Assembly (NCBI GenBank): GCA_964412775.1
Contig: CAYPPX010000001.1
Coordinates: 226,699 to 290,698 of the forward strand
Length of the DNA stretch: 64,000 nt
Reading direction: 5' to 3'
Origin: an uncultured Pseudomonadales bacterium
Lineage (GTDB): Bacteria > Patescibacteriota > Microgenomatia > UBA1400 > PJMF01
Shown: piece after piece, positions 34,083 to 56,484 of the stretch
Layout: every line of letters starts with the position of its first letter
Position numbering within the stretch: the first letter of the stretch is position 1
Made by a program: the position numbers and the translations under genes
The notes under the pieces: model-generated
Database searches by the model: none
The model's input: only the letters and a program-made list of their open reading frames with translations
What the model was told of the DNA's origin: nothing

Positions 34083-34130
34083 TGGCGGAGCACCCGGGTC
34101 TGGAACCCGTACGGCCTTATAACCGCTCAC
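34083..34130 (-). other. tRNA 3'-half-like fragment (T-arm, acceptor 3' strand and CCA); candidate left attachment-site remnant
   Basis: Reverse complement ends ...GGGTTCCAGACCCGGGTGCTCCGCCA. No matching 5' acceptor strand (GG[AG]G[CT][AG][CT]) exists upstream. It shares the core GTTTGGCGGAG with the 3' end of tRNA-Ser(GCT) at 56397. Confidence 0.35.
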
Positions 34131-34226
34131 TACACTAGGTGTGATTATACTCAAAATGAGACAAATAGGACACTATAAAAAGGGAGTGTCTTGTTTTAGA
34201 GTTGATGTGTTTTGATATATTAAATA

Positions 34227-35594
34227 CTACTTATCCCTTTTCAATTCCTCGAATCTCTCTTGCATAGTTGGATTACCCATGGTGAGTCGCTTGATAGTCA
34301 GGTCATCTATCTTGTTTTCGGCTGTGAGCAAATGTTTATCTGAAAGTGTTAGAGCATCTCGTACTTTTTCAAGATTTTTAATTGCATTATTAATTTGCTC
34401 AACCGCTTCAACATGCTTTTGACCTGCGAATTTCATTGATTTCAACCAGCTATTTTTCCATACATTTACCTCATCTTCAAACTTAGTAATATCTATATTC
34501 TGACTCCTAACTATAGCTAATTCAGTTTTATACTTAAGCGAATTTAAAGCGGCATTCCTGAGCAAAGTAATCATTGGAATAAAGAATTGAGGCCTAATGA
34601 CATACATTTTGGGATATTTATGTGATACGTCTACAATTCCGGTGTTATATAGCTCGTTATCAGCTTCTAGTAATGAAACGAGCACTGCATACTCACAACC
34701 CTTGTCATTTCTATCTTTATCGAGCTTTTTAAAGAAATCTTCATTTTTCTTCTTATTCTCTGTATCATCACCCTCGTTCTTCATTTCAAACATGATGCTA
34801 ATGATTTCTACACCTTGATCATTAGTCTCACGATAGATGTAATCTCCTTTTGTACTGCCCTTTGCGTTTCCCTCATTATCTTTTTCAAAGTAGGCATTTT
34901 GAAAAGCAGTGGCTCTAAGCTTATTGAATTCAATTTCACAGTGCTGTTCAAGGGTTTCACCTAGCATTTTGGTCGAGGCTTTGACCTTCAAATCCTTGTA
35001 ATACTCAATCATTTCCTCTTTACTCTTGAGCTCATTTTCATATTTTTCTTTGATAGAGGTAGTAAGAAGTTTTGACTCAGAATCCTTTTTATCAAGCTTG
35101 TGAATTAGTTCATCTCGTTCTTTTTCAACCACCTTGAGAGCTTCTGTGACAGCTAATTTCTTTTCTGTTTGTGCAGCTTCTATTTGAGATTGAAGCTTGC
35201 TAATTTCAGCTTCTTTTTTAGCAATATCTTCTTGCGATGAGCTTTTAGCATTAGCTTCAGCCAACTTAACAGCTGATTCTTTTTCTTTCTCTAAGACCGC
35301 AATTTTTTCTAGTAGTTTTTGCTCTTTTAACTGGGACTCTAATTCTTTTTGTTGTTCAACATTTTTGCGTACTTTCTCAACTTCTGCATCAAAAGTATCT
35401 TTTTTTATCGAATCAACGACACTTTTGATAGTAGTTTTATCGATATCTAGGTCATGTAGTGAAGATAGGTCAATGAGATCACCCTTTTGACCGTCTTCTT
35501 GTAACTCTAGTGTTTGTTCATCACGGATGGATACTTTGATTTTCTTGCTCATATTATTCCAATCTACTCCATAGTTCTGGGAAATTTTCTTCAA
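34227..35594 (-). CDS. DUF2130-like coiled-coil protein with C-terminal nuclease-like globular domain
   Basis: 455 aa; long E/K-rich coiled coil (residues ~70-200) followed by a C-terminal domain with DKGCEYAVLVSLLE. Confidence 0.45.
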   Translation of the reverse strand: MKKISQNYGVDWNNMSKKIKVSIRDEQTLELQEDGQKGDLIDLSSLHDLDIDKTTIKSVVDSIKKDTFDAEVEKVRKNVEQQKELESQLKEQKLLEKIAVLEKEKESAVKLAEANAKSSSQEDIAKKEAEISKLQSQIEAAQTEKKLAVTEALKVVEKERDELIHKLDKKDSESKLLTTSIKEKYENELKSKEEMIEYYKDLKVKASTKMLGETLEQHCEIEFNKLRATAFQNAYFEKDNEGNAKGSTKGDYIYRETNDQGVEIISIMFEMKNEGDDTENKKKNEDFFKKLDKDRNDKGCEYAVLVSLLEADNELYNTGIVDVSHKYPKMYVIRPQFFIPMITLLRNAALNSLKYKTELAIVRSQNIDITKFEDEVNVWKNSWLKSMKFAGQKHVEAVEQINNAIKNLEKVRDALTLSDKHLLTAENKIDDLTIKRLTMGNPTMQERFEELKRDK

Positions 35595-35976
35595 CTACCT
35601 GATAAATATATTGTGTTTCTTTCGTGTTTTTTGGCAGATTATTTTTGCAATAAACAAACAAAATATTTTGTTTGTGTGTTTTGCTGTCAAGAAAAACAAT
35701 GCAACGATTTCCAGACGCTTTAGGAGAAACTCCAGATTGTGCTATAGCAAAATCATATTTGTAAAGCTTGCAATCAGTACCATGTTTCAACTCATCAACT
35801 TGTTGGGTTCTTTGCAATGATGCAATGCGTTTTAATTCTTGAAAAATTGATTCCAAGGTCACCTGCCATCTTTTGCCTTTATATTTCTTGGCAAAACTTT
35901 TTAAATAATGTCGATCAGCGTAGTCACTGAAAAACACTAAGTAATCAACATCATCAGTCAAGAGGCTTGTAAACAT
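35554..35976 (-). CDS. Small basic protein translationally coupled to the Panacea-domain gene; toxin candidate
   Basis: In-frame starts at 36024 (MANISPTV) or 35976 (MFTSLLTDD); either overlaps the 3' end of the upstream antitoxin-like gene. No recognised toxin fold. Confidence 0.35.
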   Translation of the reverse strand: MFTSLLTDDVDYLVFFSDYADRHYLKSFAKKYKGKRWQVTLESIFQELKRIASLQRTQQVDELKHGTDCKLYKYDFAIAQSGVSPKASGNRCIVFLDSKTHKQNILFVYCKNNLPKNTKETQYIYQVVEENFPELWSRLE

Positions 35977-36685
35977 GATTTGGGTCCTCTTGAATGATGA
36001 GACTGTAGGGGATATATTCGCCATCACGACACATCTTCCATGGTTTTTGTTCATGGGTAAAATTAACAATCTCTTGAGTATTTTTGTCTTTCCAAAGGGT
36101 GCATATTTCTTCAATTAAACTTATTTCTTCTTTGCTAAGTAAATCAAATGTCTCATCTCTAGTATTTGAAGAGATGACAAGTGATTTGTCCATAGGAGTA
36201 ATTTTAATTTTACCGGTATCAAATAATTCATCAGTAGTTTGAAAAAAAATATCAGCCACTGGACCGTATTCCATCCGACGATATTTGACTCCACTCATTG
36301 GTTCTAGTTCACTGAAAAACTTAGCAAAGTCAGCAAGATACAACATCTTGGCTAGTTTTGTTTTCTTTATGCCACCAATTTTTTTATCGCTCGCAAATTT
36401 TATAACAGCAAAATACATCTGACGAAACTTCTTAACATTTGGTGTCTCTTCAAAAAAATCAGCAACATCTATGCCGAATAGAGCAGCTAGAGTGGTCAGT
36501 TCTTCAGTGTTTAAATCACGCTCTCCTTTTTCGACTAAGATCCAACGTTGTCTACTTATACCTAGTTTTTTAGCGACATCTTCTTGAGTGAGACCACTTT
36601 GTTCTCGAAGCTTTATTACTTTTTCAGCTAGGGAATTGTAATTATTCATATTTTTCATTGTAACAGGATTTAAAGTTACTGTCAA
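35954..36685 (-). CDS. HTH-XRE + Panacea (DUF4065/SocA-like) domain protein, antitoxin-like
   Basis: N-terminal LREQSGLTQEDVAKKLGISRQRWILVEKGER (XRE HTH), then KTKLAKMLYLADFAKFFSE, characteristic of the Panacea/GepA domain. Confidence 0.55.
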   Translation of the reverse strand: MTVTLNPVTMKNMNNYNSLAEKVIKLREQSGLTQEDVAKKLGISRQRWILVEKGERDLNTEELTTLAALFGIDVADFFEETPNVKKFRQMYFAVIKFASDKKIGGIKKTKLAKMLYLADFAKFFSELEPMSGVKYRRMEYGPVADIFFQTTDELFDTGKIKITPMDKSLVISSNTRDETFDLLSKEEISLIEEICTLWKDKNTQEIVNFTHEQKPWKMCRDGEYIPYSLIIQEDPNHVYKPLD

Positions 36686-36739: not shown

Positions 36740-37054
36740 ATGACGCTATCTATACCAACTCAATCAAATAACTATGTTTTTAATGGACCTCACCTAAATG
36801 CGAGCTCCCTTCCAACGAGATCAGGTGTATATGTTATTACTAGAAAATTGGTAAACGGTTCGTACGAAATAATTGATGTTGGCGAATCGCATAATATTTC
36901 CGAGCGTATACCGAGTCACGATCGTATGAATCAATGGAATTTAGCATCAAATAATGTATTCAATGTATGGACATTCTTGGCAGATCAAAATCAGAGGATG
37001 ATTATCGAAAGAGATATTAGAATTACCTACAATCCAATCTGTGGACAGAGATAA
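36740..37054 (+). CDS. Hypothetical protein (104 aa), weak GIY-YIG-like N-terminus
   Basis: SGVYVITRK...IIDVGESHNISERIPSH loosely resembles GIY-x10-YIG. Confidence 0.3.
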   Translation: MTLSIPTQSNNYVFNGPHLNASSLPTRSGVYVITRKLVNGSYEIIDVGESHNISERIPSHDRMNQWNLASNNVFNVWTFLADQNQRMIIERDIRITYNPICGQR

Positions 37055-37059
37055 TTTAG

Positions 37060-38496
37060 ATGAAACTAACAAAATCACTCTTCTTAAGCTACCTAGAATC
37101 TCCACTACATATGTGGTTGTCAGTGCACAGTGATACTCCACCAAAGCCACCATCCCTGTACGACCAACATACGATAAAGCAAGGGTATAGCATTGAAAAA
37201 TTAGCGAAAGAATTTCTACAACGAAAAGTTGCGACTCAGTATCCTGCTGGCACAACACTCTCATTCGAAGCAACACTAACTGATGGGAACTATGAATCTC
37301 GCATTGATGCGTTGGTTCATGACACCGTAAACAATACCTATGATCTGTATGAAATCAAAAGTAGCACCACCATCCACCCTGAGCACAAATATGACGTGAC
37401 CTTTCAGTATTTAGTAGGCAAAGCCACTCTTCCGATCAACAAAGTTTATTTAGTCAGGGTCAACAGTGACTATCAACGAGCTGGGGAGATTGATATCAAT
37501 GAACTCTTCATCGTGGAAGACATGACTGACCACATTGCCAAAAAAGAAGATGAGGTGTATCAACTCAGGTCTGAAGCATGGGGAGTGATGCGACTTGAAC
37601 AAGAACCAAGTGACGAGCATTGTTTTAATCCAGGTACCTGTATCTATCCTGAACACTGCTTCTCTCATCTACCCGATGGCTCAATCTATGAGCTGGGCAG
37701 AGCCAGCAAGAAACAATATAGCGAGCTCCTGGATATGGGAGTGAAGTTGGTCAAAGATATTCCCGATACGTTTACCAGTAACTATAAGCAAAGACTGCAA
37801 ATTCAATCCGCCAGACAAGACCAACCAATCATTGATCACGATGCCATTGCAGAAGAATTAAGTAGGCTGGAATATCCCATCTACTTCTTAGACTATGAAA
37901 CTTATGGCGAAGCCTTACCCATGTACGATGGCTACAAGCCGTATCAGCAGGCAGTAACACAGTTTTCCATCCATGTAGTTCGTCATCCTGGTAGCGATGA
38001 CTTTGAACATTACGAGTGTCTAGCCACAGAATCTGGCGATCCAGCACGACATCTAGCTACAGAGCTGTGCAATGTCATTGGCGACACTGGCTCAGTGATT
38101 GTCTGGAACAAAGGCTTTGAGTGTGGCAGGAATGATGAGTTAGCTATTTTATGCCCTGATCTTTCATCACAACTCAAAAGTATTAATGAGCGAGTTTATG
38201 ACTTGATGGATGTGTTCAAAAATGGCTTGTATGTCGATCACCGTTTCCATGGCAGTGCATCGATCAAAAAAGTCTTGCCCGTGCTATGTCCTGAACTGAG
38301 TTACAAAGAACTAGAAATTGGTGAGGGTACCAAAGCTATGCTTGCTTGGCATGAGATGGTCTATGGAGCTATAACTGCGGAAGAAAAAGAACAAATTAGA
38401 CAAAACCTACTGACCTACTGCAAACTCGATACCTGGGCAATGGTGGAGATTTGGAGAAAACTTAAGCAAGAGCCTCTGAAAGAGACAGCTTTGTAA
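37060..38496 (+). CDS. DUF2779-like protein: N-terminal PD-(D/E)xK (Cas4/RecB-like) plus C-terminal DnaQ/RNase-H-like exonuclease fold
   Basis: D-x-YEIK motif (YDLYEIKSST); Cys cluster CFNPGTCIYPEHC; exonuclease-like YFLDYETYG and KLDTWAMVEIW. Confidence 0.5.
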   Translation: MKLTKSLFLSYLESPLHMWLSVHSDTPPKPPSLYDQHTIKQGYSIEKLAKEFLQRKVATQYPAGTTLSFEATLTDGNYESRIDALVHDTVNNTYDLYEIKSSTTIHPEHKYDVTFQYLVGKATLPINKVYLVRVNSDYQRAGEIDINELFIVEDMTDHIAKKEDEVYQLRSEAWGVMRLEQEPSDEHCFNPGTCIYPEHCFSHLPDGSIYELGRASKKQYSELLDMGVKLVKDIPDTFTSNYKQRLQIQSARQDQPIIDHDAIAEELSRLEYPIYFLDYETYGEALPMYDGYKPYQQAVTQFSIHVVRHPGSDDFEHYECLATESGDPARHLATELCNVIGDTGSVIVWNKGFECGRNDELAILCPDLSSQLKSINERVYDLMDVFKNGLYVDHRFHGSASIKKVLPVLCPELSYKELEIGEGTKAMLAWHEMVYGAITAEEKEQIRQNLLTYCKLDTWAMVEIWRKLKQEPLKETAL

Positions 38497-38967
38497 CATC
38501 ATCACGTACAACTAAAACTATTCTCATATTTAAATCGGTCGGAAGAAGGTTTATTGCTTCTGTTAATTTATGTGCTGATATTTCTACTGGAATCTGATTT
38601 ATGCCAATTCCCAAAGCTGGAAAGGCAATAGATTCCAAACTATTTTTTTGAGACAGCAAAATACTGTTTAAGTAACAATCGGAAAGAGTATCTACACCAT
38701 GTTGATAAAACTTTGGCACAGCGGTATGAATAATACGCTTGAACGGAAGATTAAAAGCAGGAGTGATTATAGCTTTACCGAGTTCTAGAGTATTCTTGTT
38801 TATTTTTGTAATTCTAAGCGACAGTGATTTTCCAATTGAATTTTTCCAGCCCACTTAAATATTTCACCACATAAACCACTTCCAGCCAGCAGGCTTGGAT
38901 GTGCAGGATTAACAATTGCATCGACTTGCTGTTCAAAAATGTCATCTAGCAAGACTTCAATTTGCAT
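38462..38967 (-). pseudogene. Macro-domain (ADP-ribose-binding / deacylase) gene split by a -1 frameshift in an A5 run
   Basis: 38967-38800 encodes MQIEVLLDDIFEQQVDAIVNPAHPSLLAGSGLCGEIFKWAGK (macro N-terminal half). 38854-38462 encodes ...RIIHTAVPKFYQ...SIAFPALGIGINQIPVE (C-terminal half) in the -1 frame. Restoring one A in GGAAAAATTC joins them. Confidence 0.6.
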
Positions 38968-39925
38968 ATGAGAGCAATTCGATAGGAATGTTTTCAGGGA
39001 TAATCGTTGGAATCTTATTTTCTGTTGTTCTGATTCTTGGAAACTTGCTTGAGAAAATTGAGAGCAGACTACTCAGGGGATCAAAAGCTAATCTATTCTC
39101 ATTGAAATAGTTACTTGCTTCAAGCAAATCTTGATCATTATCAGCAATTTTTTCTAAATGATCTTGATTACGCTGATCCCACCTTACTCTGGATTCTTCT
39201 ACCATTCTTTTTACTTCATCTTCAGGTGTTTGAAATGCTTCAAGTTCATTCCAATCGATTGTTTTCCAACTATCATTCTCTAGTGCTGTAATAAACATCT
39301 TATTGAGGTGATCATACCCATCTGCTGTCTTCACAAGATAGTCATGAAACTCTTGGTTGACGTGGTCTGCCTTAAGTAGGCTATCAGCATTTTGTTTAAT
39401 TTTTGTAACATCTGCTGGAAGTTGATCTAACGTGAGCAGCCAATTGTCATAATCCTTAATGTCGTAAATGGATTGATCAATCTGAACTACCAGCATTAAG
39501 GTCTCTGTCATCAAATGTTCATTTCGTTTGCGGTTGCGAAAACTCTCCGAGAGTTTGTGATATTCCAACAAACTTGACTGTTTTAACCCAAGATAATGCT
39601 TATATTTATTTGGTAGAAAGAAGAATATTTTTTCTTGTTTAGAGTTGTACAAAGAGGCTTGTTCTAGTGATGAAAGAGCATTATCCAATTCATTCTCTAT
39701 GGCCTTGCCCAAACTGGCAAAGATCTCATCATCCACACGTTCAGGACCTTGCTGCCGAAGTGAAATACCTTGCTCTGCTTTACCTATAGAAATGTATGCA
39801 TTAGAAAAATTCTGCCGAAAACCTAATTCTAGTTCGTTGAAGTAGAATCTAGGAAACCAAGAAATGAATATGAAAATAGAGACTAGAATTACAAAGATGG
39901 GTATGAAGATATGAATTGTCTTCAT
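38957..39925 (-). CDS. Membrane-anchored hypothetical protein (N-terminal TM helix, 322 aa)
   Basis: MKTIHIFIPIFVILVSIFIFISWF TM segment. 4-nt overlap (ATGA) with the upstream methyltransferase gene, so same operon. Confidence 0.45.
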   Translation of the reverse strand: MKTIHIFIPIFVILVSIFIFISWFPRFYFNELELGFRQNFSNAYISIGKAEQGISLRQQGPERVDDEIFASLGKAIENELDNALSSLEQASLYNSKQEKIFFFLPNKYKHYLGLKQSSLLEYHKLSESFRNRKRNEHLMTETLMLVVQIDQSIYDIKDYDNWLLTLDQLPADVTKIKQNADSLLKADHVNQEFHDYLVKTADGYDHLNKMFITALENDSWKTIDWNELEAFQTPEDEVKRMVEESRVRWDQRNQDHLEKIADNDQDLLEASNYFNENRLAFDPLSSLLSIFSSKFPRIRTTENKIPTIIPENIPIELLSYAN

Positions 39926-42900
39926 TTAGACTGAGCTTCAATAATTTTAATTTCATCATCAGTTAAATTGTATAAGTGGTAAACCATTTCATCGATTTTT
40001 TTCTCTAAATTAATTTGTTCAATTGGTGGCCTTTCTGGATCATATCCATCAACTGAAGTAATTGCCAGCACTTGGTCAGTGAGATCAATAAAAGGCTGTT
40101 GCTCAGTTTCTGAAATTACTTTTATAGGAATTTCTGATAAAGGTCCTTTATAAAGTTCAAGAATATCGCCTTTTCTTTTACCTCTATTATATAGCCACAA
40201 ATAAATCAATTTAGAATTTAAAACAGATAGCAAATAAGCAATTTTCAAATTATTTTTTATAGAAGTTATGTAATAAACATCCCCAGCGCCAATAAGATTG
40301 CCGTTGGTTTTAGCAAATACATTCTTTTTAGAACGATACGGACACACAATATGGTCACCAGTGTCAACCAAGAAACTTCTTTTTGATCCTCTGAGCCAAT
40401 ACCAAGAGTTTTCATCATCGTTGACCTGTTCTCTAGCTTTTAATATTGGACGAAATTTTAAAAGGTAATTCTTTATCCAAGGATAATTTTGAATATTTAC
40501 TTCTGAATCAACATATATGTAGAACATTTCCTTTTTCAAAGAAACAAAAAACCTATGAATATCAGAATTCTTAATAAATGGCTTAATTATTTCATGTCTC
40601 TCAAACTGAGGAACTTTCTCATAAGTTTCAAAATCAATAATATAAATGTTTGATCCAACTTGAATATTATTTTTTGATAGATAATCATGAGTCACAAATT
40701 TATTTTCTAGAGCTCTATTAAGCAAAGCCTTACCAACAACATCTGCTCCAGATTGAACACCCATGTTTATATAACTGAGTTCACCCAAATTGACGCAGTT
40801 TGTTTTTATCTTGTTTAATAATTTTGATTTCTTAGAATCAGAATTATTTATACCTTCAAATCTAATATAGTTATTCTCACCATCATATATCTGACTTTGA
40901 GATAAAGTTAAATACTTGCTTTCATCATTCTTATTGTGAATTATCTCTGTTAACAAGCTTTCGCTAGCCGTACCATTTTTGTTTGTGACAATTATTTTTG
41001 CATGGTTATCTTTATCAATTTGTTTTTCAAAAATAGTGATCATGTTATGTTGCCCAAGAGCAGACTTAAATATTCTAAGTTCATTAAAATTAATTAAATT
41101 CCTAATAACAGATCTAGTTTTTAAGTCTAATCTAAGCTTTTTTGCACCATCAGCTGTAATAAAATAATTAGTTGTAATAAAAGCATTTTGAGATTCTTCT
41201 TTACCAATATTTAATGCTAAATGAAAGAAAAAATAAAAAAGATCCATTTTTCTTTGGTAAAATGACTTTAGATTTCCATTGCTGATTTCTCTAAAGATTT
41301 TTTTATTGCCTTTTTCTCCTACATAAGGTGGGTTCCCAATAACTATATCGAAACCTCCTTTTTCCTTGAATACATCACTGAATTCTAGTTTCCAAATAAA
41401 AAATGGTTTAATATTTTTATGTCTTAGCTTAATTAAATTGTTAAGCTCTTTAATCTTCTTCTGTTCTTTGAATGATTCCTCAATAATTTCCCATTTCAAG
41501 TTATCAATATCTTCTTTTAGTGTCTGTTTTTTTGTTTTCTGTGATTCGTCCACATACTGACTTATTTTATTTTGCAGATCTTCAAGTTTTATTTCTGAGT
41601 TTGATTTGCCAAAACCAAAAGGCAACTGCTCAGCCTTGAATTCTTTAGATTTCTTAAATATTCCTTCATCAAATAACTTAATTCCTTCATACTCCGAAAT
41701 CAGACTATTGCCTTGCATTATTTTGTGGTCAAGGTTGGGGAGTGGACTTGGAGTAGATTCCTCCACAATAAGAGTTAGCCATAAACGTAGTTTGGCGATT
41801 TCTACTGCACCCGGATCGATATCAACTCCATGAATTGAATTAGATATTGCATGTTTTTTAAGTTGGTAGTCAGTTAGTCTCTTATCCAAATAAATGTTTA
41901 ATATTTTTCTAGCTCTAACAATCTCATTTATCATCCCTAACGGAAAAGCTCCTGACCCGACAGCTGGATCAGCCACTTTAATGTTCATTAGAAGTTCATC
42001 CAATTCATCTGCTTTCTTTATAATAGATTCAGCTAATAAGAGCTTGTAAGTCCCAGAATACTTATACCCCTTATTTTCCTTTTCTCTAATCTTTTTTAAA
42101 GCGATGCTGTCATTTTCAATAATTCTATCCCCAGTATAGATAAAACTTTCAATATCTTTTCTATCAATATTGTCAGTTTCTGATTCTAAGTAATTAATCA
42201 AACACTCTTGGCACATGTAATGAACAATTTCTCTAGGAGTATAGAAGGCACCCTTGCTTTTTCTATCTCTGACTTGGAGCAAATTTTCAAAAACCTTGCC
42301 GAGCATTTCTGGATCAACAGCAACCTCCTTTTCCAGTGGTTCATTTTCATTAACCGTAAAGTTATACCTATCAAAAACGTCTAGGATGCCATTACCCCTA
42401 TCTCCATTTTTTGTGGGGATATTATTAGAGAATACTTCGTCAGGAATGTTAATATCAGTTGTTTCCCAAGCGTAATCATTCATTGGCTCAAATAATCCAC
42501 CGTTTAAAAATGGCATCCTACAGTTGTTGAGTTTTGGGTAAAATGAGTTCTTGCCTCTATCCTGAGCCAGTGCCTCATAAAATAGTGGCTCTAATACATC
42601 ATCAAAAAAGTTTTTTCCATATTTTGATCTTCTATCAAATAGCTCTCTTAAAAAGTTTTTAGGTCCATCTCCCCAAGATTTATTTGGAGCTACCCCAAAC
42701 CAACCTTTCTTTTGAAGAAAGTAGAGAAATACAATTTGACCCATTGTCTTCTTTGCAAAATCAACAGTATCAATTTCTTTCGAACTAAACTCGTTTTTGA
42801 TATTTTCATCACTTAAAATTATTTTGTCTAAATTCTCTTTGAAAACCAAGAAAAGCTCCTTGTACTTTTCAAAGAACTCATTGGTTACAACTTCAATATC

Positions 42901-43455: not shown

Positions 43456-43460
43456 AAGAA

Positions 43461-46784: not shown

Positions 46785-46830
46785 TCAACGCATGTGCGTT
46801 TATATGCGCGCATATGCGTATATATGCATT
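46785..46830. repeat. Cluster of overlapping ATGCG/CGCAT palindromes in the divergent intergenic region
   Basis: ACGCATGTGCGTTTATATGCGCGCATATGCGTATATATGCAT. It contains the 10-bp perfect palindrome ATGCGCGCAT and repeated TATATGCG units. Confidence 0.7.
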
Positions 46831-47031
46831 GAAATATCAATCTAATTTGCCATTTTTCCTATTGTATTTTCGTTTGGAATGATTTAGCATGAATTTACTC
46901 GCAAGAGTCGTGTGCGGACACGTTAAATGACGCATTTCAAAATAGTTCTTTGTTGTCTCCAGGAGGCAACTAAAAGGTATTTTGGGATGCGTCTTTTTTT
47001 TATCAATTTTTCCGCAGATGAAAGGAGTGAT

Positions 47032-49491: not shown

Positions 49492-51040
49492 ATTAAACCC
49501 AGAAGAAATTCAATCAATCATCGCCGACAAAAATGTTAGAGTGAACTTAGCCAAACAAAGCTGTTTGTGGTTCTCATCCATTTACTTCTCACACTACTTT
49601 ACGCACGATTTTGCAAAGTTCCACTATGATTTGTTTAATCTGGCTTCCCAGCGAGAATTGCAACTACTCATAGCCATCATGTTTCGTGGGTCTGGCAAGA
49701 GTACGATCATGACCACCATTTACCCGCTGTACGCTTTGTTCGGAAAACCTGAGAAAAAGCTCATTGTGATTGTGAGTCAAACAGCTGATCTGGCTCGGAC
49801 ACATCTAAAAAACATTAAAAGTGAGTTGACTACCAATCAACTACTCAAGGAAGACCTGGGACCATTCAAGGAAGTGGATAATCTGTGGAATGCCCAAGCC
49901 ATTGAACTACCCAAGCAGGGAGCAATGATTGTGGCTATCTCTATAGACCAAAGCATTCGTGGTTTGCGGTACAAACAACATCGACCAGACCTCATTATTT
50001 GTGACGACATTGAGGACAGTCAGTCGGTTAAGACAGAAGAAGGTCGCAGACGCACTCAGGAGCTGTACAGTAGTGAAATTGCTCCGCTTGGTGATCTTGG
50101 TACTCAAATTGTGATGGTTGGTAATTATCTCCATCCCAATGGCTTGCTGAGCAAATTAAAGACCGACATTAACGAAGGAAAGATACTGGGTAAGGCTTTG
50201 TTCGTACCACTAGTTACTGAGGATAAAAAAATCATGTGGCCTGAAAAGTTTCCAACGCTTGACGATGTGTACAGGCTGAAGGCACTGATAGCCGACGAAA
50301 TAATTTGGCTTAGAGAATATGAACTTAGAATTGTGGCGGACTACGACCTCTACTACACCTTTGAAAACATTCATTTTTATGACGAGGTTAACCCAGCCTG
50401 GAAACCATATTTTCAGTATCGACTAGTTGCTGCCGACCTAGCCATTTCGCAGGAAAATACGGCTGACTTTACTGCCATTGCACAGGCAGACGTATATAAA
50501 GTGAACGATCTGTTTCACATCTTCATTCTGCCTTACCTTATTAACAAGCGAATGACATTTCATGAGATCTGTAACACCTTAGAGAGTATTGGTGTTCAGC
50601 AAAATCCCCGCCCTTTTATTTATGTAGAAGATACAGGCTTTCAGAGGATATTTTCACAGGAACTTCAAAGCAGAGGCACCATTATAGTGTCCCCATTCAG
50701 TGTCAAAGGCATGAGTAAAAGAGAACGGCTTTCACTTACAGTCATGTGGCATCAGCAGGGACAAATCCACTTTCCTAGATTTGGTGTAGAACCTTTACTA
50801 AACCAGCTAACTGGCTTCGGTAGGGAAAAACATGACGACTTAGTTGATGCATACACGATGTTGGTAATGCAGGTTCAACGATTAGTGCATGAGCATGATA
50901 CTCCGTATGATCCGCACCAACCCAGCATCGTAATAGTTAGAAATAGTAATCATTGGCAACGTGGCTCTTTTGATCAGAAAATGGACCCAAGAACACTCAG
51001 GAATGATCCTTATGATTTTGACACTAAACGAGGTCGCTAA
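49451..51040 (+). CDS. Phage terminase large subunit
   Basis: Walker A FRGSGKST; Walker B/coupling LIICDDIED; C-terminal nuclease-fold region; 529 aa. Confidence 0.65.
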   Translation: MTLVERSMMTASIKLNPEEIQSIIADKNVRVNLAKQSCLWFSSIYFSHYFTHDFAKFHYDLFNLASQRELQLLIAIMFRGSGKSTIMTTIYPLYALFGKPEKKLIVIVSQTADLARTHLKNIKSELTTNQLLKEDLGPFKEVDNLWNAQAIELPKQGAMIVAISIDQSIRGLRYKQHRPDLIICDDIEDSQSVKTEEGRRRTQELYSSEIAPLGDLGTQIVMVGNYLHPNGLLSKLKTDINEGKILGKALFVPLVTEDKKIMWPEKFPTLDDVYRLKALIADEIIWLREYELRIVADYDLYYTFENIHFYDEVNPAWKPYFQYRLVAADLAISQENTADFTAIAQADVYKVNDLFHIFILPYLINKRMTFHEICNTLESIGVQQNPRPFIYVEDTGFQRIFSQELQSRGTIIVSPFSVKGMSKRERLSLTVMWHQQGQIHFPRFGVEPLLNQLTGFGREKHDDLVDAYTMLVMQVQRLVHEHDTPYDPHQPSIVIVRNSNHWQRGSFDQKMDPRTLRNDPYDFDTKRGR

Positions 51041-51236
51041 GCTTCACCTTCAGCACCTTAGCGATTTTCTGAAGCACTTCCAGCGAGGGGACGTTGCGTC
51101 CTTGCTCTATGTAACCCATGTAGGCACGACTGACACCAACCTTAAAAGCAACTGTTTCCTGTGACAAACCAGTTTCTTTACGAGCTTTCTGGACTTTTTG
51201 GCCAAGCACTTTGGGCAATTTGGCATTTTTTCTCAT
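51024..51236 (-). CDS. XRE-family HTH transcriptional regulator
   Basis: 70 aa; GLSQETVAFKVGVSRAYMGYIEQGRNVPSLEVLQKIAKVL. Confidence 0.65.
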   Translation of the reverse strand: MRKNAKLPKVLGQKVQKARKETGLSQETVAFKVGVSRAYMGYIEQGRNVPSLEVLQKIAKVLKVKLSDLV

Positions 51237-51348: not shown

Positions 51349-52452
51349 ATGCCAATAATTGTGTCCCAAAATGGGAGAAACGCCACTAAATTAGACAAAA
51401 TAAGCTTCGGTTTGGAGAATAAACTGCAAGCTTACATCTACGATAACCCAGAAAGTATTCCTTTGTATGACATCAAAGATGATATTCGACTACTCATCCT
51501 TGCTCGGGAGTTTGGGACGACTAGTGGACCCATAGATGCAGTCGGTATTGATGGGGATGGTCAACTCTATTTAGTAGAAACGAAGCTGTATAAAAATCCA
51601 GACAAGAGAACTGTGGTCGCTCAAGTTCTGGATTACGGAGCATCACTTTGGAAAAGTCTTAACGACTTTGACGATTTCCTCCTCCAACTCAATGGTCATG
51701 TGCAAAAGAAATTTAGCATGTCGGCAACTGAAAAGATCAAAACCTTTTTTGGTATTGATGATGAACGATTGCAGACTGTACTAGAGCAAATGAAGCTTAA
51801 CTTAGACGAAGGCAATTTCAAGTTTGTAGTGCTAATGGACAGCATGGAAGACAGGCTTAAAGATCTAATCGTCTACATGAACCAAAACAGCAAATTTGAT
51901 ATTTATGGAGTGGAACTGGAGTACTACCAACATGACAGTTTTGAAATACTGATCCCCAAAATCTATGGAGCCCAAGTCAAAAAAGATGTGGGAAGTAAGC
52001 GAGTTAATACAGCTGTGATCACCGATGAGGAATTTATCCAAGCCTTTGAACAGGCAGTGCAACCAGTTGTGCAAAGTATCATGCAACTGAGTGCTGACAT
52101 ATCCGCAGGAGGCATATCCATTCAGGGATTATCGAGTCGCAAAACTCCCAAAAACATTAACTTTTACTTCACCCACTCTGACCAAGAGAAAAATGCACTC
52201 ACCGTAACTATTGGAGTAAATGGTGGCATTGCTGGCAAAACCCTAGATTTCTGGTGCAATAACCCAGATAGATTGGGACAAGTAACTACCGCAATTCAGC
52301 AAGTACTTGGGATAGAGACTAAGCAACTACCAACTGGGACAGGCTATGGCATCGTGGCGAAGTGGGATTTGAAGGAAGTGAGTGTAGACAAGCTAATTTT
52401 ATTGTTTGAACATATTGTGAAACTTAGAACAATCGAAGGTTCTAGTTTATAA
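51349..52452 (+). CDS. PD-(D/E)xK nuclease-family protein (NucS/DUF91-like core)
   Basis: GPIDAVGIDGDGQLYLVETKLYKN...VVAQVLDY (D...E-x-K...Q). Confidence 0.4.
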   Translation: MPIIVSQNGRNATKLDKISFGLENKLQAYIYDNPESIPLYDIKDDIRLLILAREFGTTSGPIDAVGIDGDGQLYLVETKLYKNPDKRTVVAQVLDYGASLWKSLNDFDDFLLQLNGHVQKKFSMSATEKIKTFFGIDDERLQTVLEQMKLNLDEGNFKFVVLMDSMEDRLKDLIVYMNQNSKFDIYGVELEYYQHDSFEILIPKIYGAQVKKDVGSKRVNTAVITDEEFIQAFEQAVQPVVQSIMQLSADISAGGISIQGLSSRKTPKNINFYFTHSDQEKNALTVTIGVNGGIAGKTLDFWCNNPDRLGQVTTAIQQVLGIETKQLPTGTGYGIVAKWDLKEVSVDKLILLFEHIVKLRTIEGSSL

Positions 52453-52459: not shown

Positions 52460-52657
52460 ATGAATAAAATAATGATTAGTGTGTTTCTGCTATTAGCTGG
52501 TATTGCTATCACATTTCATTATTTACTCCCTGCATTTGCGAGAAACCAGTGTGCTCACAATCTTCAAGACAAGTCTAACTATCAATTGGAGCGAGAGAAG
52601 GATGTTTATAGATATCGTTTCTTCACCTGCCTTTCGTATTATGGAGTTGAAAAATGA
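52460..52657 (+). CDS. Small membrane protein (65 aa)
   Basis: N-terminal TM helix; ORF only. Confidence 0.25.
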   Translation: MNKIMISVFLLLAGIAITFHYLLPAFARNQCAHNLQDKSNYQLEREKDVYRYRFFTCLSYYGVEK

Positions 52658-53064
52658 CAAGGAAGCAACTTTCATTATCTGATCTGAGAGAAAAACTAAA
52701 TAAAAATAAAGCCTTTCCGATTTATAAGAAAAAGATTAGTAATGATGATTTGAAGCTGGTATTTTCTGACAAAGAACTCAAGAAAAAATCTGGTCTTAAA
52801 ACTTACACACTTATATTTGGAATATTTGTTTTACTAACTGGCTTATTTTCAATTGACCTTGTACGAATGTTCGTTGGATTAGTTTTTGTATTTGTGTCAA
52901 TGTTTATGGAAAACCCAAATATTAAATTCTTGAAGGAAAGAATTAAAAAAAGCCCAGATCATCTAATTAGTGCATTTGAAAATGGTTTAGTAACTTTTCA
53001 CCTAATGGGCGGTTTCGGAACTATTTCTAAAGATGATACTCAGTTGGTTGAAGATGAGGAATAG
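52654..53064 (+). CDS. Membrane protein (136 aa, two TM helices)
   Basis: ORF with hydrophobic segments. Confidence 0.3.
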   Translation: MTRKQLSLSDLREKLNKNKAFPIYKKKISNDDLKLVFSDKELKKKSGLKTYTLIFGIFVLLTGLFSIDLVRMFVGLVFVFVSMFMENPNIKFLKERIKKSPDHLISAFENGLVTFHLMGGFGTISKDDTQLVEDEE

Positions 53065-53067
53065 CAT

Positions 53068-53985
53068 ATGAGTAAAGTTGTGAAACATGGTGACTCGCAT
53101 GGTATCTATAGAACTGAGGACGGTGAGATTATTTATGGAGAAAGTCGTTTTGTTTTCATCAAAAACTTAAGCTATTACCTTGCTGAGTTAAAAATTTATG
53201 CCGATGGAATGGTTGATTGCTGGGGGTTGATGGATCTTGATGAATTAAAAGAAAAACTTGATAGTGGTTGGATAACCTTAAGTATTCCCAATGGAGCAAG
53301 TGTTGATATCCACATGTTAAGCTCACTTAAAGTCAGTGAAGCAAATAACTACATATCAAATCAGGAATTCCTCAAAGAAATTCAAGACACCATCTCTGAT
53401 CTGAATGACCAGCCGACTTCTTTAGAATTGTGCAGAAATGCATATGAACAATACCTAGACGATAAAAGTACTGAAAACAAAATAAAGTTAAGAAAAGCTT
53501 ATTATGCTATGCCGGAGCATATGAGACACTTTGTTTTGGGAGATATGCAGGCGAAAGATTCGCCAATTACATCAATTATCGATACAGTAGACTTAGATGA
53601 AGTTGAACCAAAATTTCCATTTAAAAAAGATGAAAAATTCATTGAGTTATATAAGCAAGTTGCTCAAGATGAAATTCCTTATTATTGGGCAGTGATAAAA
53701 ATTGATGGCATTAAGCCGTTTAGTGATGCTGATGTTGAAATTGAAGATAGTTTTAGAAAACATTTCTTAGAAAAATATACTGAGGGCAAGCCTATTTCAA
53801 TTCATGTATATCAGGATGGTGATGTTTTCATTATGAGTGATGACTATATGAGTTTTACTCTTTATAAGGGACTAGGTGTGAAAACAATACCTTGTTTAGT
53901 AATGGGAGAACCTGTCGGAGACCACGTGATTGATAAAATGAAAATCCGCTTTCAAGCACCAGCAGTTGTGGTTAATCAGGAGTAA
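53068..53985 (+). CDS. Hypothetical protein (305 aa)
   Basis: ORF only; AT-rich. Confidence 0.4.
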   Translation: MSKVVKHGDSHGIYRTEDGEIIYGESRFVFIKNLSYYLAELKIYADGMVDCWGLMDLDELKEKLDSGWITLSIPNGASVDIHMLSSLKVSEANNYISNQEFLKEIQDTISDLNDQPTSLELCRNAYEQYLDDKSTENKIKLRKAYYAMPEHMRHFVLGDMQAKDSPITSIIDTVDLDEVEPKFPFKKDEKFIELYKQVAQDEIPYYWAVIKIDGIKPFSDADVEIEDSFRKHFLEKYTEGKPISIHVYQDGDVFIMSDDYMSFTLYKGLGVKTIPCLVMGEPVGDHVIDKMKIRFQAPAVVVNQE

Positions 53986-54011: not shown

Positions 54012-54224
54012 TCGCGGTACCTTGTCGCTGTATGGACAAGATGAAACTACTAAAACTCATTAAACGGTGTGAGTACTATTTCTATCGCTATCTCATTACT
54101 GGAGATAAGCGATACATTGATAAGTATTTTCAGAACAGTAAACGAATCAAAAATGAGGTTGGCAAATGATGCCAAACAACCTCAATTCCACAGCTAGACT
54201 TACCAGAAAATCGCGGTACCTTGT
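54012..54224. repeat. Two 14-bp direct repeats TCGCGGTACCTTGT, 199 bp apart, upstream of the recombinase gene
   Basis: Exact copies at 54012-54025 and 54211-54224. An inverted repeat TTGGCA-aatga-TGCCAA lies at ~54155-54171. Confidence 0.7.
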
Positions 54225-54408
54225 GTCCTTGATGAAAGACCAAATACCAGATTATAAGCTCCAAAAAGCAATCAAGATTATGGACCAATGCATATTTGCC
54301 ATCAGGTTTTACGAAAAAACTGGACAAGACAAATACATTGATGAACTTAGTTGGGCTGTAAAAAGACTTCACCAATTGTTTAGCGAGAAAGGAGATAAAA
54401 ATGACTGA
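54166..54408 (+). CDS. Small hypothetical protein (80 aa) overlapping the recombinase start; possible accessory/directionality factor
   Basis: ORF with 8-nt overlap onto the recombinase gene. A competing antisense ORF at 54130-54375 makes the call uncertain. Confidence 0.25.
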   Translation: MMPNNLNSTARLTRKSRYLVSLMKDQIPDYKLQKAIKIMDQCIFAIRFYEKTGQDKYIDELSWAVKRLHQLFSEKGDKND

Positions 54409-55705
54409 TATTCGCTACTGCCTATATGCCAGAAAATCCAGTGAATCTGATGAACGCCAAGCGATGAGTATTGATGGACAAATTAGTGAAATGCTCAAAA
54501 TCGCCAAACGGGAAAAAGTAAATGTGGTTGAAACAATTACTGAAAGTCATTCTGCCAAAGAGTCTGGACAGCGACCAGAGTTCAACATTCTGCTCAGTAA
54601 ACTATCTGAAGGAAAATTCAACGCCATTTTGACATGGGCACCCGACCGCCTCAGTCGTAATGCTGGGGATCTAGGAAGAATAGTTGATTTAATGGACCAA
54701 GGCAAGTTACTTCAAATAAAAACCTATTCACAATCATTCACCAACAATCCTAACGAAAAATTCCTCCTCATGATTTTATGCAGTCAAGCAAAACTTGAAA
54801 ATGATAATCGCGGTGTGAATGTAAAACGAGGATTAAGAAATAAATGTGAGTTTGGTATCAGACCAGGCCTTGCTCCTATCGGTTACACCAATGTGTTGAA
54901 AGCTAACCGCATCTCAACAGTTGAACAAGATACACAGCGAGCACCGATTATCAAAGAAATATTTGAAAAAGTAGCCTACCAAGGATACTCAGGAAGAATG
55001 GTTAAAAAGTGGCTTGACGACATTGATTTTAGAACTAAAAGTGGTTGTCGGATGCCACTGAGTAAAGTCTATGTAGCTTTGCAAAATCCATTTTATTATG
55101 GTGAGTTTCAATATGGAGATAAGTGGTATAAAGGAACCCATAAACCTCTGATCAGTAAGACTCTATTCGAGAAGGTGCAGATCCAACTACAGGTTGCTCC
55201 CAAGCAATGGAACAAACAACTCTTTCCATTCAAAAAGATTTGTAAATGCGGATCATGCGGTGGAAGCGTGACAGCTGAAATTAAGTATCGAAGAACAAAG
55301 GCAAACCAAGTAAACACTCACATTTACTACCACTGCAATCGCATCAAAAAATATGACTGCAAAGAGCCATACATTACTGAGCAGGAACTCATTACTCAGC
55401 TTATCGGACACCTGCCAGAAATTAAGCTCAACACAAAATATTTGATGACAGAATTTGAGACTGAGGTCAAACGACTTCAGCATCTAAAAGCTACAGTGAT
55501 AGATAAATTTACGCCACGATTTGAATTAACTCAACATAATACTGGTGCTGGAAATACTGAAGAGGTATCTAGCTCGCAAACAGAAATCCTTCGAGAGTAT
55601 TTACTTCATGTTCTTCAGTACGGAACTCCAGAGGAGAGATTGAAAATATTAGGTGGAGTGAAGTCAAAATTTGAATTGAAAGACAGAAAAATTGAGTTGC
55701 TCTAA
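54401..55705 (+). CDS. Large serine recombinase (phage integrase/transposase type)
   Basis: N-terminal catalytic domain YCLYARKSSESDERQAMSIDGQ; recombinase domain; zinc-ribbon CKCGSCGG...HIYYHCNR; C-terminal coiled coil; 434 aa. Confidence 0.75.
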   Translation: MTDIRYCLYARKSSESDERQAMSIDGQISEMLKIAKREKVNVVETITESHSAKESGQRPEFNILLSKLSEGKFNAILTWAPDRLSRNAGDLGRIVDLMDQGKLLQIKTYSQSFTNNPNEKFLLMILCSQAKLENDNRGVNVKRGLRNKCEFGIRPGLAPIGYTNVLKANRISTVEQDTQRAPIIKEIFEKVAYQGYSGRMVKKWLDDIDFRTKSGCRMPLSKVYVALQNPFYYGEFQYGDKWYKGTHKPLISKTLFEKVQIQLQVAPKQWNKQLFPFKKICKCGSCGGSVTAEIKYRRTKANQVNTHIYYHCNRIKKYDCKEPYITEQELITQLIGHLPEIKLNTKYLMTEFETEVKRLQHLKATVIDKFTPRFELTQHNTGAGNTEEVSSSQTEILREYLLHVLQYGTPEERLKILGGVKSKFELKDRKIELL

Positions 55706-55710
55706 AAAAA

Positions 55711-56214
55711 TTAAACAACTGGTTCAAAATCCCATTTTGATTCGTAGTTTACAGCCAGTGGGGTGTCAATTGGGTAGCCATCATTTTCCAAGCCTATTCT
55801 AAATCTTCTCAAATTTGTGTCACTTTCTTCAGTCTTTGTGGACAACCAATACTGATGTTGTTCTCTAACGTAGTTGGCCACAATTCTGCTTGGCACGACA
55901 AAAAATCTAAATACCTGGTCAGAAGAGATATTTACGAAAATATAAAATAGATTGGGATCAACAATAGTTTCATGCTTCTCAGACATCATCCAGTCAAATG
56001 TATTGCCAAACATTCTTGATTTATATGCGTTGTCTCTATAGTGAGTTTTAACCTCAATTTTAAACAACCTTCCTGTTTCGGGGTCAGCCACCAAGATATC
56101 AACACTTTTAGTATTACCCAATGTCATGTTGGCATCATAACCATACAGAGTAAGTTGAGATAAAACAGCAAACTCACCTGCCAAAGCAATAGAATTATTT
56201 GAAAGATTACGCAT
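55711..56214 (-). CDS. PD-(D/E)xK nuclease-fold protein (Hjc/restriction-endonuclease-like)
   Basis: AGEFAVLSQLTLYGYDANM...SVDILVADPETGRLFKIEVKT (D...E-x-K). Confidence 0.4.
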   Translation of the reverse strand: MRNLSNNSIALAGEFAVLSQLTLYGYDANMTLGNTKSVDILVADPETGRLFKIEVKTHYRDNAYKSRMFGNTFDWMMSEKHETIVDPNLFYIFVNISSDQVFRFFVVPSRIVANYVREQHQYWLSTKTEESDTNLRRFRIGLENDGYPIDTPLAVNYESKWDFEPVV

Positions 56215-56396
56215 TCATTCAGTATAACAAGGAACCAAAAAGCTTAGAACCAACGACTTTTCCTTATGAGCGTTTTTAGGCGATTTTCTAGCTTACAGGC
56301 CTCTTTTGCGACCCTCATCAATTACGTCGATAATTAAGCAGGTAGCATCAAGCTATTTAATGGTAGTTGATTGGTCTTGGAGCAACAAAGGGTGTT

Positions 56397-56484
56397 TGGC
56401 GGAGATGATGGGATTCGAACCCATGAACCGGAGAACCGGTCAGGTTTAGCAAACCTGTGCAATTGGCCACTATGCGACACCTCC
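56397..56484 (-). tRNA. tRNA-Ser (anticodon GCT), type II
   Basis: Reverse complement GGAGGTGTCGCATAGTGGCC...CAGGT-TTGCTAA-ACCTG-[long arm]-GGTTCGAATCC...CATCTCCGCCA. Confidence 0.85.

Follow-up and report, generated by a model that had tools for sequence, protein, structure and literature searches.

A probable capsid-less, satellite-like integrative element with a large serine recombinase at tRNA-Ser(GCU) in a Patescibacteria genome

What occupies the 22 kb that separate a tRNA-Ser(GCU) gene from the gene that directly follows it in a close relative? We addressed this question in a 64,000-nucleotide (nt) stretch of an uncultured Patescibacteria bacterium (contig CAYPPX010000001.1, positions 226,699 to 290,698; here, the window), in which the island spans positions 34,091 to 56,398, or 22.3 kb. 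We conclude that it is probably one integrative element of the Patescibacteria (candidate phyla radiation, CPR), inserted at tRNA-Ser(GCU) and combining, in the manner of a satellite, a capsid-less packaging core with defense cargo. An initial annotation, made from the letters of the sequence, had likewise placed an integrated island at this tRNA, with a recombinase at its tRNA-proximal end and defense genes aboard, and on these points we uphold it.

ARAGORN and Rfam found three tRNA genes in the window, all of them tRNA-Ser genes on the minus strand (GGA at 26966-27051, ACU at 32141-32226, and GCU at 56397-56484). The tRNA-Ser(GCU) gene, which constitutes attB and had been predicted at this very position, was called by both programs, is intact (55 bits in Rfam), and points with its 3' end to the left, toward the island. 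A scan of a genome collection with the 140-amino-acid (aa) neighbor gene at the far border led to Patescibacteria metagenome-assembled genomes, the closest of which (L001) shows 89% aa identity on that gene. The site is empty in L001, where a lipoprotein gene is followed by tRNA-Ser(GCU), 9 nt, and the ATG of the 140-aa gene, which in the window lies 22,314 bp from the tRNA. In blastn, window positions 33635-34047 and 56393-64000 map 12 nt apart in L001, and homology breaks exactly at 34047/56393. Such an empty site in a related genome had been suggested as a check on the island; host genes also resume on both flanks, as claimed at the time, with synteny to L001 restarting exactly at each end.

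The two borders share an exact repeat of 10 bp, TTTGGCGGAG, at 34081-34090 and 56395-56404 (spacing, 22,314 bp); the 11-mer initially given as shared, GTTTGGCGGAG, is one base off, since the left copy reads GTTTTGG. Aligning the two ends, another check proposed earlier, defined a 6-bp core. CTCCGC is the sole sequence common to all tRNA-side and far-side junctions in the alignment, and a further copy of the element (L151) shortens this common core to TCCGC. On the tRNA side the core lies at 56399-56404, where it spans the terminus of the acceptor stem together with the discriminator G and the leading C of CCA; the far-junction copy lies at 34085-34090 (minus strand; GCGGAG on the plus strand), with host DNA to its left. 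A related IMG/VR element (L009), whose large serine recombinase (LSR) is 88% identical, occupies the same tRNA with the same junction, CTCCGCCAAAC joined to ACCCTTGGTTGCTCCAAGACC. L011 and L008 cover a 26-kb IMG/VR contig with the same two ends as the window element and a different far junction, GCTCCGC joined to AACAATCG.

One of the two arms of the element's attachment site attP, the P-prime region (56215-56398, minus strand), directly adjoins the core on the tRNA side. It is conserved with L009, L011, and L151, and in L033, L150, L088, L120, and L131 this arm comes after P arms. Beside the core it reads CAAAC-ACCCTTTGTTGCTCCAAGACC (56373-56386) and then TTGATG...TGCTTAATT, and its first bases restore the CA end of the tRNA. 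The locus thus shows the marks of a tRNA-integrated island: the empty site is precise, the tRNA 3' end is directly repeated at the two borders, and the tRNA remains whole. These results show that site-specific recombination placed the element in the last bases of tRNA-Ser(GCU) and that the P-prime arm (CAAAC...) rebuilds the end of this tRNA. The same alignments place the crossover within CTCCGC, and the L151 comparison narrows the exchange region to TCCGC.

The far border carries a sequence that resembles the end of a tRNA. Over 28 nt (34081-34108) its identity is 71% with the 3' end of tRNA-Ser(GCU) and 68% with that of tRNA-Ser(ACU), and within it GGTTCCAGACCCGGGTGCTCCGC (34085-34107, minus strand) mimics the T arm and the 3' acceptor strand of tRNA-Ser. 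The initial annotation described this sequence as folding only as the T-arm, acceptor 3', and CCA part of a tRNA. It is not a leftover of the host tRNA but the other attP arm, the P arm, borne by the element itself, because the empty site of L001 lacks it, related elements conserve it at their far ends (L002, L003, and L008, which have no other flanking sequence in common), and >120 metagenome contigs carry it among the matches listed. A displaced host tRNA end was rejected on these grounds, the empty site lacking the fragment and the element family carrying it. Most of the metagenome P arms run on into unrelated sequence, as expected of element-host junctions. The P-arm pattern GGTTCCAGACCCnnnTGCTCCGC has one match in the window versus 0 expected in shuffles. 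The half-site GTTCGAATCC-N6-CTCCGC occurs in all three tRNA-Ser genes of the window, and GTTCnAnnCC-N6-CTCCGC has four matches there (the three tRNA-Ser genes and the P arm) versus 0 expected; the latter is likely the recombinase half-site, as predicted from these matches. Scans with the P-arm and half-site patterns found no internal att site within the 22 kb at up to 3 mismatches, and we rejected on this basis a stack of separate insertions.

We considered a host origin of the 34.08-kb sequence very improbable, whether as a 3' piece displaced from a host tRNA or as a small host gene for a tRNA-like RNA (ending ...GCTCCGCCA). Such an origin would account for the resemblance to tRNA-Ser 3' ends, for metagenome copies flanked by host-like genes (NUDIX, MacB, and LD-carboxypeptidase), for loci in which the module fills the place of the tRNA beside an LSR (L127 and L140), and for a copy followed by its own terminator (L002). 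It would not account for the lack of any such sequence at the L001 empty site, nor for the 10 differences over 31 positions between the fragment and the resident tRNA, the intact tRNA being self-consistent. Moreover, ARAGORN made no tRNA call on the fragment, Rfam gave no match even at E ≤ 1, the fold was no better than that of shuffles (z = -1.04), and Rfam matched ordinary tRNAs alone in 14 related loci. RNAalifold found no covarying helix in the P-arm module across 113 distinct copies, the invariant 4-bp hairpin being fixed by the search pattern. With all of these searches null, a tRNA or RNA gene was rejected in favor of a DNA site.

The P arm adjoins an end module (34108-34200, minus strand) that is conserved in L002, L003, and L008 and for which we derived a consensus of 116 copies. 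It consists of a box, GTTATAAGGCC (34113-34123), an outward -10-like TATAAT (34144-34149), two GTCYYATTT repeats (34154-34171), and an inverted repeat, AGACACT/AGTGTC (34169-34191). About 60% of the P-arm copies have this conserved upstream module (repeats plus TAnAAT); across copies it shows an inverted repeat AGACAC/GTGTCT, two direct GTCYCATTT copies and often an inverted third one, a TGnTAnAAT-like hexamer, and a GTTATAAGGAC box. Because direct and inverted DNA copies of the repeats co-vary and RNAalifold finds no covarying helix, we read the module as DNA bound by protein and not as an RNA gene, which points to a putative protein-binding region and argues further against a tRNA-like RNA. 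The TAnAAT hexamer is conserved in the 116-copy consensus and is co-oriented with the downstream genes both in the window and in an array of small open reading frames (ORFs) in L003.

The enzyme that would act on these sites is encoded 0.7 kb from tRNA-Ser(GCU). The LSR gene (54401-55705, plus strand) matches PF00239 (E value = 1e-20), PF07508 (E value = 4e-14), PF13408 (E value = 9e-7), and the integrase family phrog_95 (E value = 3e-57). Its product has an N-terminal resolvase domain with a nucleophilic Ser and a C-terminal recombinase domain with a zinc ribbon; the catalytic motif Y9-x-R11-x-S13 reads YARKSSE, with S13. The best solved relative is SPbeta SprA/YokA (E value = 1e-13, over residues 9 to 341). 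Judged by its three Pfam domains and catalytic Ser motif, the LSR is intact. Hallmarks of LSRs are a 2-bp crossover in minimal attP and attB sites and unidirectional recombination in the absence of a recombination directionality factor (RDF).

An exact-protein look-up of the LSR returned L151, a 29-kb contig of another run, in which the LSR gene is identical (1305/1305 nt), the convergent 167-aa ORF beside it and the 80-aa ORF overlapping its start are 99.6% identical, and the DUF7638 gene is 99.1% identical. There the element adjoins, at TCCGCCAAAC, a different tRNA-like gene whose flank has about 51% GC. This gene (5000-5140 of L151) has arms like those of tRNA-Ser(UGA); its variable arm, about 60 nt long, has a large loop on a 9-bp stem, and the gene was not called by ARAGORN. 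Since the identical LSR gene sits at a different tRNA-like gene in such a flank, the comparison shows that the element was recently mobile. Exact-protein look-ups of the DUF2130 and Panacea proteins, made for the far junction of L151, returned other short contigs alone.

We searched the ORFs of the island against Pfam and PHROG and, for defense families, PADLOC. The core of the element lies upstream of the LSR on the same (plus) strand. It opens with a fusion of a ParB N-terminal domain (ParB-N) to an N6/N4 DNA methyltransferase (46927-48330; PF02195 and PF01555, phrog_498), continues with a second DNA methyltransferase (48321-49070; PF01555, E value = 2e-32, and synteny) and a protein like the terminase small subunit (TerS, 49063-49491; PHROG terS families, E value = 6e-9, Pfam HTH_Tnp_1_2, and synteny), and ends with the terminase large subunit (TerL, 49451-51040; phrog_38, E value = 1e-72). 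TerL has Walker A (G80-S-G-K83-S-T), Walker B (D185-D186), and nuclease residues (D329 and D462/D463/D466); it is about 25% identical to the TerL of cultured phages and had no match by sequence to solved structures. No island ORF matched a portal, capsid, tail, lysis, or replication family in Pfam or PHROGs, so that the terminase is accompanied by none of the portal, major capsid protein, and tail genes of a complete tailed prophage.

This arrangement recurs in relatives. We found 21 IMG/VR loci with an LSR 44 to 88% identical to that of the window, and their invariant core order is ParB-methylase, (methylase), TerS, TerL in one or two tandem copies, 0 to 3 small genes, and LSR. Methylase, TerS, TerL, and LSR share order and orientation in 19 to 22 of 22 loci, the ParB-methylase is in the core position in 19 of 22 related loci, TerL often directly abuts the LSR, and the gene after the LSR is nearly always convergent with it. 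The Walker A and B motifs and nuclease aspartates of TerL are invariant across 23 family members that are 34 to 47% identical. In contrast to the core, the cargo of relatives is variable and largely defensive (type I restriction-modification [RM], SMODS, and reverse transcriptase), and blocks of it are swapped between relatives. When 95 non-core proteins of relatives were compared with PHROG, methylases, helicases, a reverse transcriptase, and repressors were among the 25 most recurrent of the 86 families matched, and no capsid, portal, or tail family was among those 25. A TerL profile scan separated two settings: more distant TerLs (29 to 37% identity) belong to ordinary phage contigs, where a portal comes next at E values of 1e-84 to 1e-112, while island-type TerLs (38 to 52% identity) are followed by type I RM genes. 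As portals are readily detected beside the distant TerLs and none is found beside the island-type ones, the packaging module appears to be phage derived and the structural genes truly absent. Taken together, the comparisons show a family with an invariant core of ParB-methylase, (methylase), TerS, TerL, and LSR, whose members lack portal, capsid, and tail and whose cargo is interchangeable. The cargo in the window comprises a type IIG-like RM enzyme with an HKD-Snf2 partner, a Panacea toxin-antitoxin (TA) pair, a Macro-domain protein, and a PDC-S11-like protein.

These data bear on the suggestion that the island is a composite defense island or a degraded prophage. A temperate phage at the tRNA might have lost portal, capsid, tail, and lysis genes, leaving TerS and TerL as inert remnants among defense genes that came later. 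The TerS-TerL and ParB-methylase genes are indeed of phage type, the TerL clade includes phage members with portals, the island is a GC mosaic, and IMG/VR classes the relatives as viral contigs. Nevertheless, the same truncated layout is found in about 20 relatives with LSRs 44 to 88% identical and TerL often abutting the LSR, on which independent decay would not converge; the TerL catalytic residues are invariant, some relatives have two intact TerL copies, and the identical LSR at a second tRNA-like gene speaks for current mobility. We therefore regard a decayed prophage as improbable. Given one structural-gene-less architecture in 20+ divergent relatives and conserved TerL catalytic residues, the best reading of the island is a capsid-less, packaging-competent, satellite-like defense island and not a randomly decayed prophage, and we amend the earlier description in this sense.

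The opposite possibility, that of a small but complete temperate virus with structural proteins too divergent for recognition, would find room in several unannotated ORFs (orf322, orf104, orf136, and the DUF7638/9 protein). These are not conserved across the family, as structural genes would be. Furthermore, the same tool detects the portals of the related phage clade at E values of <1e-84, and of about 22 genes in all at least 12 have a non-structural annotation. We give this possibility hardly any credence.

Our reading of the island as a satellite-like element suggests the following cycle. From its homology and position, the LSR would recognize T-arm-like half-sites, GTTCnAnnCC-N6-CTCCGC, and exchange strands within TCCGC. 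After integration the P arm lies 22.3 kb away, beside the host 140-aa gene, and excision would yield a circle with the junction ...GGTTCCAGACCCGGGTGCTCCGC joined to CAAACACCCTTTGTTGCTCC.... The cargo would defend the host. Among the least secure steps, the terminase of the element would load the excised DNA into helper-phage capsids, making it a phage satellite, and the methylases would protect the transferred DNA. Equally insecure is the idea that the outward -10 element may keep a downstream host or cassette gene expressed by replacing the promoter cut off by the insertion. We propose it because this element is co-oriented with the 140-aa gene, which in the empty site directly follows the tRNA and is presumably co-transcribed with it, and because the L003 module heads co-oriented ORFs. 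In the excised circle, the outward -10 would read across attP into the gene beside the LSR.

Several observations weigh against this account. No replication initiator, primase, replicative helicase, or Rep domain was recognized in the island ORFs, which leaves packaging from concatemers unexplained; no excisionase or RDF was recognized in the island; and the helper phage is a postulate. The far-end promoter was not called by a simple sigma-70 consensus scanner and consists of a -10 hexamer without a -35. The P and P-prime arms of the window subfamily have little dyad symmetry, unlike textbook LSR sites. The PHROG families of relatives were listed for 25 of 86, so that a lone structural match in one relative could still exist. 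Although the LSR gene is identical, the 184-nt P-prime region (56215-56398) is 85% identical between the window and L151, and the PDC-S11 gene is 88% identical; this suggests a mosaic, possibly with ends swapped between co-resident elements, which our model does not fully explain. Neither an excised circle nor an attP junction of the window element was seen, and no fetched contig had terminal overlaps. Finally, in about two dozen metagenome copies the P arm is followed directly by a P-prime arm, of four classes (class 1 in about 7 copies, as read by eye). We rejected these P-core-P-prime joints as evidence of excised circles, several lying inside very large contigs (0.25 to 0.7 Mb) with host-like neighbors; at least some are chromosomal, as tandem elements or with a resident arm as target. 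Tandem accretion, in which resident tRNA-mimic arms would serve as targets, fits the joints.

The lack of a replication module and of a helper also enters into an account in which the element is mobile but its terminase module serves something other than its own transfer, such as an anti-phage interference or defense device (hijacking or cutting phage DNA, or blocking helper packaging) or another DNA transaction, with spread by other routes. The overwhelmingly defensive cargo agrees with this account, and the TerS of satellites is known to interfere with helper packaging (PMC9618062). Against it, every family member conserves TerS and both enzymatic centers of TerL together with the LSR in a single co-oriented block, and such a family-wide block fits a function in mobility better than one more defense gene of the variable cargo. 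We consider an interference role unlikely, and we retain packaging for the element's own transfer as the preferred reading.

The remaining genes of the island include cargo, regulators, and small ORFs. From the far end, the last gene before the border encodes a DUF2130 protein (34227-35594, minus strand; PF09903, E value = 2e-79), with 94% aa identity in the same position in L008. A TA-like pair follows (35554-36685, minus strand), consisting of an XRE helix-turn-helix and SocA/Panacea antitoxin (35954-36685; PF13274 and PF01381) and a partner ORF downstream, within 35554-36114, that is called as 140 aa in public contigs (L152 gene calls). On the plus strand are a 104-aa ORF without a Pfam or PHROG match (36740-37054; the same ORF is called in L152 and L153) and a recurrent backbone gene for a DUF2779 protein (37060-38496; PF11074, E value = 3e-40), with homologs in L008, L025, L032, L043, L088, L095, and L119. 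The minus strand then carries the Macro-domain cargo gene (38462-38854; PF01661, E value = 1e-18) and a 322-aa protein with an N-terminal hydrophobic stretch (38957-39925), which has no family match and an 88% identical homolog in L043.

The largest cargo genes are also on the minus strand. The type IIG-like RM enzyme/methylase (39922-43455) combines Eco57I/MmeI methylase and TaqI_C specificity domains and matches PADLOC REase_MTase_IIG (E value = 2e-194); as in type IIG enzymes, one polypeptide holds a gamma-methylase and target recognition (PF07669, PF20473, and PF12950), with nuclease activity predicted. It is variable defense cargo within an AT-rich block and is apparently co-operonic with a gene for an HKD (PLD) nuclease and Snf2-family helicase (43461-46658; PLDc_2, ResIII, and Helicase_C; PADLOC candidate "HKD+Snf2," E value = 9e-54). 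Between TerL and the LSR lie a 70-aa XRE-type regulator (51024-51236, minus strand; Pfam HTH_3, E value = 2e-15; conserved in L010 and L011) and, on the plus strand, a 367-aa protein related to the PADLOC candidate defense family PDC-S11 (51349-52452; E value = 2e-13; homologs in L011 and L020), three ORFs of which the last encodes a DUF7638/DUF7639 protein (52460-53985, with a 65-aa ORF, a membrane-like 136-aa ORF, and the DUF7638/DUF7639 gene at 53068-53985; PF24644 and PF24645; no PHROG match), and the 80-aa ORF that overlaps the LSR start (54166-55705 for the two together). Beyond the LSR, the convergent 167-aa ORF (55711-56214, minus strand) reads inward from the tRNA side and has a weak match to PADLOC REase_II (E value = 5e-4); nearly all relatives have a convergent gene in its position. 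The LSR, TerS, TerL, TA-like pair, and XRE regulators named in the initial annotation were thus borne out by Pfam, PHROG, or PADLOC matches. Three methyltransferases were recognized (39922-43455, 46927-48330, and 48321-49070) where four had been counted. The count of at least five nuclease-fold proteins is plausible, with the PLD protein, the TerL nuclease, ParB-N, the DUF2779 protein, the PDC-S11-like protein, and the weakly REase-like orf167 as candidates.

The compositional blocks noticed by eye are real. The GC content is 31.9% in the AT-rich block (38957-46658), 44.0% in the methylase-terminase block (46927-51040), and 41.3% at 37060-38900, against 36.7% for the whole island and 36.6% (left) and 33.1% (right) for the host. 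The island is therefore a GC mosaic though its mean is about that of the host. An imperfect GC-rich palindrome, TATGTCAACGCATGTGCGTTTATATGCGCGC / GCGCGCATATGCGTATATATGCATTGAAATA (46781-46836), lies in the space that divides the AT-rich RM block from the methylase-terminase block of higher GC; it may be a regulatory site or a cargo-exchange boundary.

Two further features were seen in relatives. Two full-length tandem TerL genes are present in L014, L021, L022, L024, L026, and L029, each 38 to 40% identical to the TerL of the window. In L012 (6040-7513), a family LSR with 47% identity lies near tRNA-Gln(CUG), 114 nt from its 3' end and in the same geometry, which suggests that other subfamilies may target other tRNAs.

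The other tRNA-Ser genes of the window also have insertion-like neighbors. At 32040-32140 (minus strand), 3' of tRNA-Ser(ACU), CTCCGC is followed by a class-3 P-prime module of about 100 nt that closely matches those in L087, L084, and L140 (mean column identity, 76%) and forms a second att junction. To its left, 5 kb without a nucleotide match in L001 (27.1 to 32.1 kb) encode flavodoxin, cupin, pyridoxal phosphate-dependent decarboxylase, GHMP-kinase, and kinase-like proteins; no LSR or P arm was found in this region. A possible third tRNA-Ser-adjacent insertion lies 3' of tRNA-Ser(GGA), where about 2.1 kb (24834-26965) extend up to a patatin gene across a gap that measures about 68 nt in L001; its ORFs of 400 and 125 aa have no Pfam match. 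The tRNA-Ser(ACU) gene itself (32141-32226, minus strand; loop TT-ACT-AA, 56.6 bits in Rfam) coexists with tRNA-Ser(GCU) and is also found in L001 (10976-11061) and L013 (15923-16010). To our knowledge, A34 is almost without precedent in bacterial tRNAs other than tRNA-Arg(ACG); if deaminated to inosine, it would read AGA too.

Cassettes without a recombinase were found in L003 and L001. In L003 (8170-10500), tRNA-Ser(CGA) is followed by a duplicated tRNA 3' fragment plus P-prime arm, a promoter-like module, and four co-oriented small ORFs (64 aa, a PhzF-like protein of 222 aa, 64 aa, and the 140-aa "host" gene), and the array ends in the terminator of the tRNA itself. Five P-arm sites lie within 1.6 kb, one after each small ORF, the 140-aa gene included, and the array looks integron-like or like staphylococcal cassette chromosome (SCC) elements. 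In L001 (11040-11600), tRNA-Ser(ACU) carries a one-gene cassette in which tRNA-CTCCGC is joined to ATCCTAGGATTAGAAC..., followed by a 138-aa ORF and a P arm that is joined to TTATAAT; no recombinase is nearby.

We compared the element with four known systems. SCC elements (SCCmec, with CcrA/B/C) have an LSR, insertion at the 3' end of a gene, tandem recombinase-less cassettes, and repeated att sequences. The element resembles them in its LSR, its insertion at the very 3' end of a housekeeping gene that is conserved and left intact, and its variable cargo, and its relatives do so in the tandem stacking of elements and recombinase-less cassettes with repeated att (five sites in L003 and the one-gene cassette in L001). 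Serine-recombinase insertion at a 3' end, stacking, and recombinase-less cassettes are thus all found in the window element or in L003 and L001, and the window itself has the second P-prime junction at tRNA-Ser(ACU). In contrast to SCC, the target is a tRNA and not rlmH, the arm mimics a tRNA, TerS, TerL, and methylase are invariant, and the host is a member of the Patescibacteria. The LSR is no more than a distant relative of characterized ones, and no Ccr-specific similarity was seen, its best solved relatives being SprA and TP901-1 Int.

Tycheposons of Prochlorococcus similarly carry cargo in streamlined genomes, target tRNAs, and pile up beside them with partial-tRNA repeats. A minority use LSRs, and some are like phage-inducible chromosomal islands (PICI) with TerS or a capsid gene (bioRxiv 10.1101/2020.12.28.424599). 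Compared by description, tycheposons differ in using mostly tyrosine recombinases and in their hallmark replication module (primase/helicase), a module not recognized in the island, and a TerL in an invariant core has not been reported in them. By the criteria for tycheposons, tRNA targeting, cargo, and stacking were present and a replicative module was not found by Pfam.

Known phage satellites usually have a replication module. The satellites considered here (PICI, including Staphylococcus aureus pathogenicity islands, SaPI; capsid-forming PICI, cf-PICI; PICI-like elements, PLE; and marine virion-encapsidated integrative mobile elements, VEIMEs) share with the island integration, the lack of a full virion gene set, packaging genes, and anti-phage cargo. 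PLEs and one VEIME module also use serine recombinases (PMC9618062). The island has an integrase (the LSR) and TerS/TerL packaging genes without a virion module, as satellites do, while a replication module of its own (primase/helicase or rep-ori) was not found in its ORFs, nor was a helper-sensing module identified. It further differs from classical satellites, which have TerS alone or TerS plus TerL with capsid genes (cf-PICI), in having TerS plus TerL without capsid, and at 22 kb it is larger than most.

Phage serine integrases (phiC31, Bxb1, A118, and SPbeta SprA) share the domain architecture, the short crossover core, and the location of the integrase gene beside attP. Their targets are typically protein-coding genes, in contrast to the tRNA-Ser 3' end and T-arm-mimic attP found here; tRNA targets are a hallmark of tyrosine integrases. 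The island is set apart from SCC elements, tycheposons, and satellites by its combination of serine integrase, tRNA target, and tRNA-mimic attP, its invariant, complete terminase without any capsid gene, and its CPR host.

Our literature searches on prophages, satellites, or serine recombinases of Patescibacteria/Saccharibacteria turned up no description of this element family, and the family is apparently widespread and so far undescribed. Our broader proposal is tentative, and we hold it at somewhat less than an even chance: that the Patescibacteria harbor a large, undescribed family of capsid-less terminase satellites with a tRNA-mimic attP, which enter tRNA-Ser 3' ends by means of a serine recombinase and bring defense, and that the same att system mobilizes one-gene cassettes into promoter-led arrays.

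Patescibacteria are difficult to culture; their genomes measure about 1 Mb and mostly lack CRISPR, and little is known of the ways in which they gain genes and withstand phages. The locus offers a gene-acquisition mechanism defined at the sequence level, with the att core and both arms delimited, an intact recombinase, and a second tRNA-like gene that has an identical recombinase gene beside it. The family, with >120 att arms among the matches listed, ferries restriction systems, TA pairs, and genes for reverse transcriptases and systems like cyclic-oligonucleotide-based anti-phage signaling (CBASS). A capsid-less element with a complete terminase of its own is an unusual satellite design and could identify the helper phages of CPR, and a serine integrase whose attP is known and whose tRNA-Ser target is compact and universal would be a candidate genetic tool for these bacteria. 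If the proposal is true, satellites would bring defense systems into genomes otherwise considered defense poor, and cassettes stacked behind tRNA-Ser genes would represent integron- or SCC-like gene capture run by a serine recombinase.

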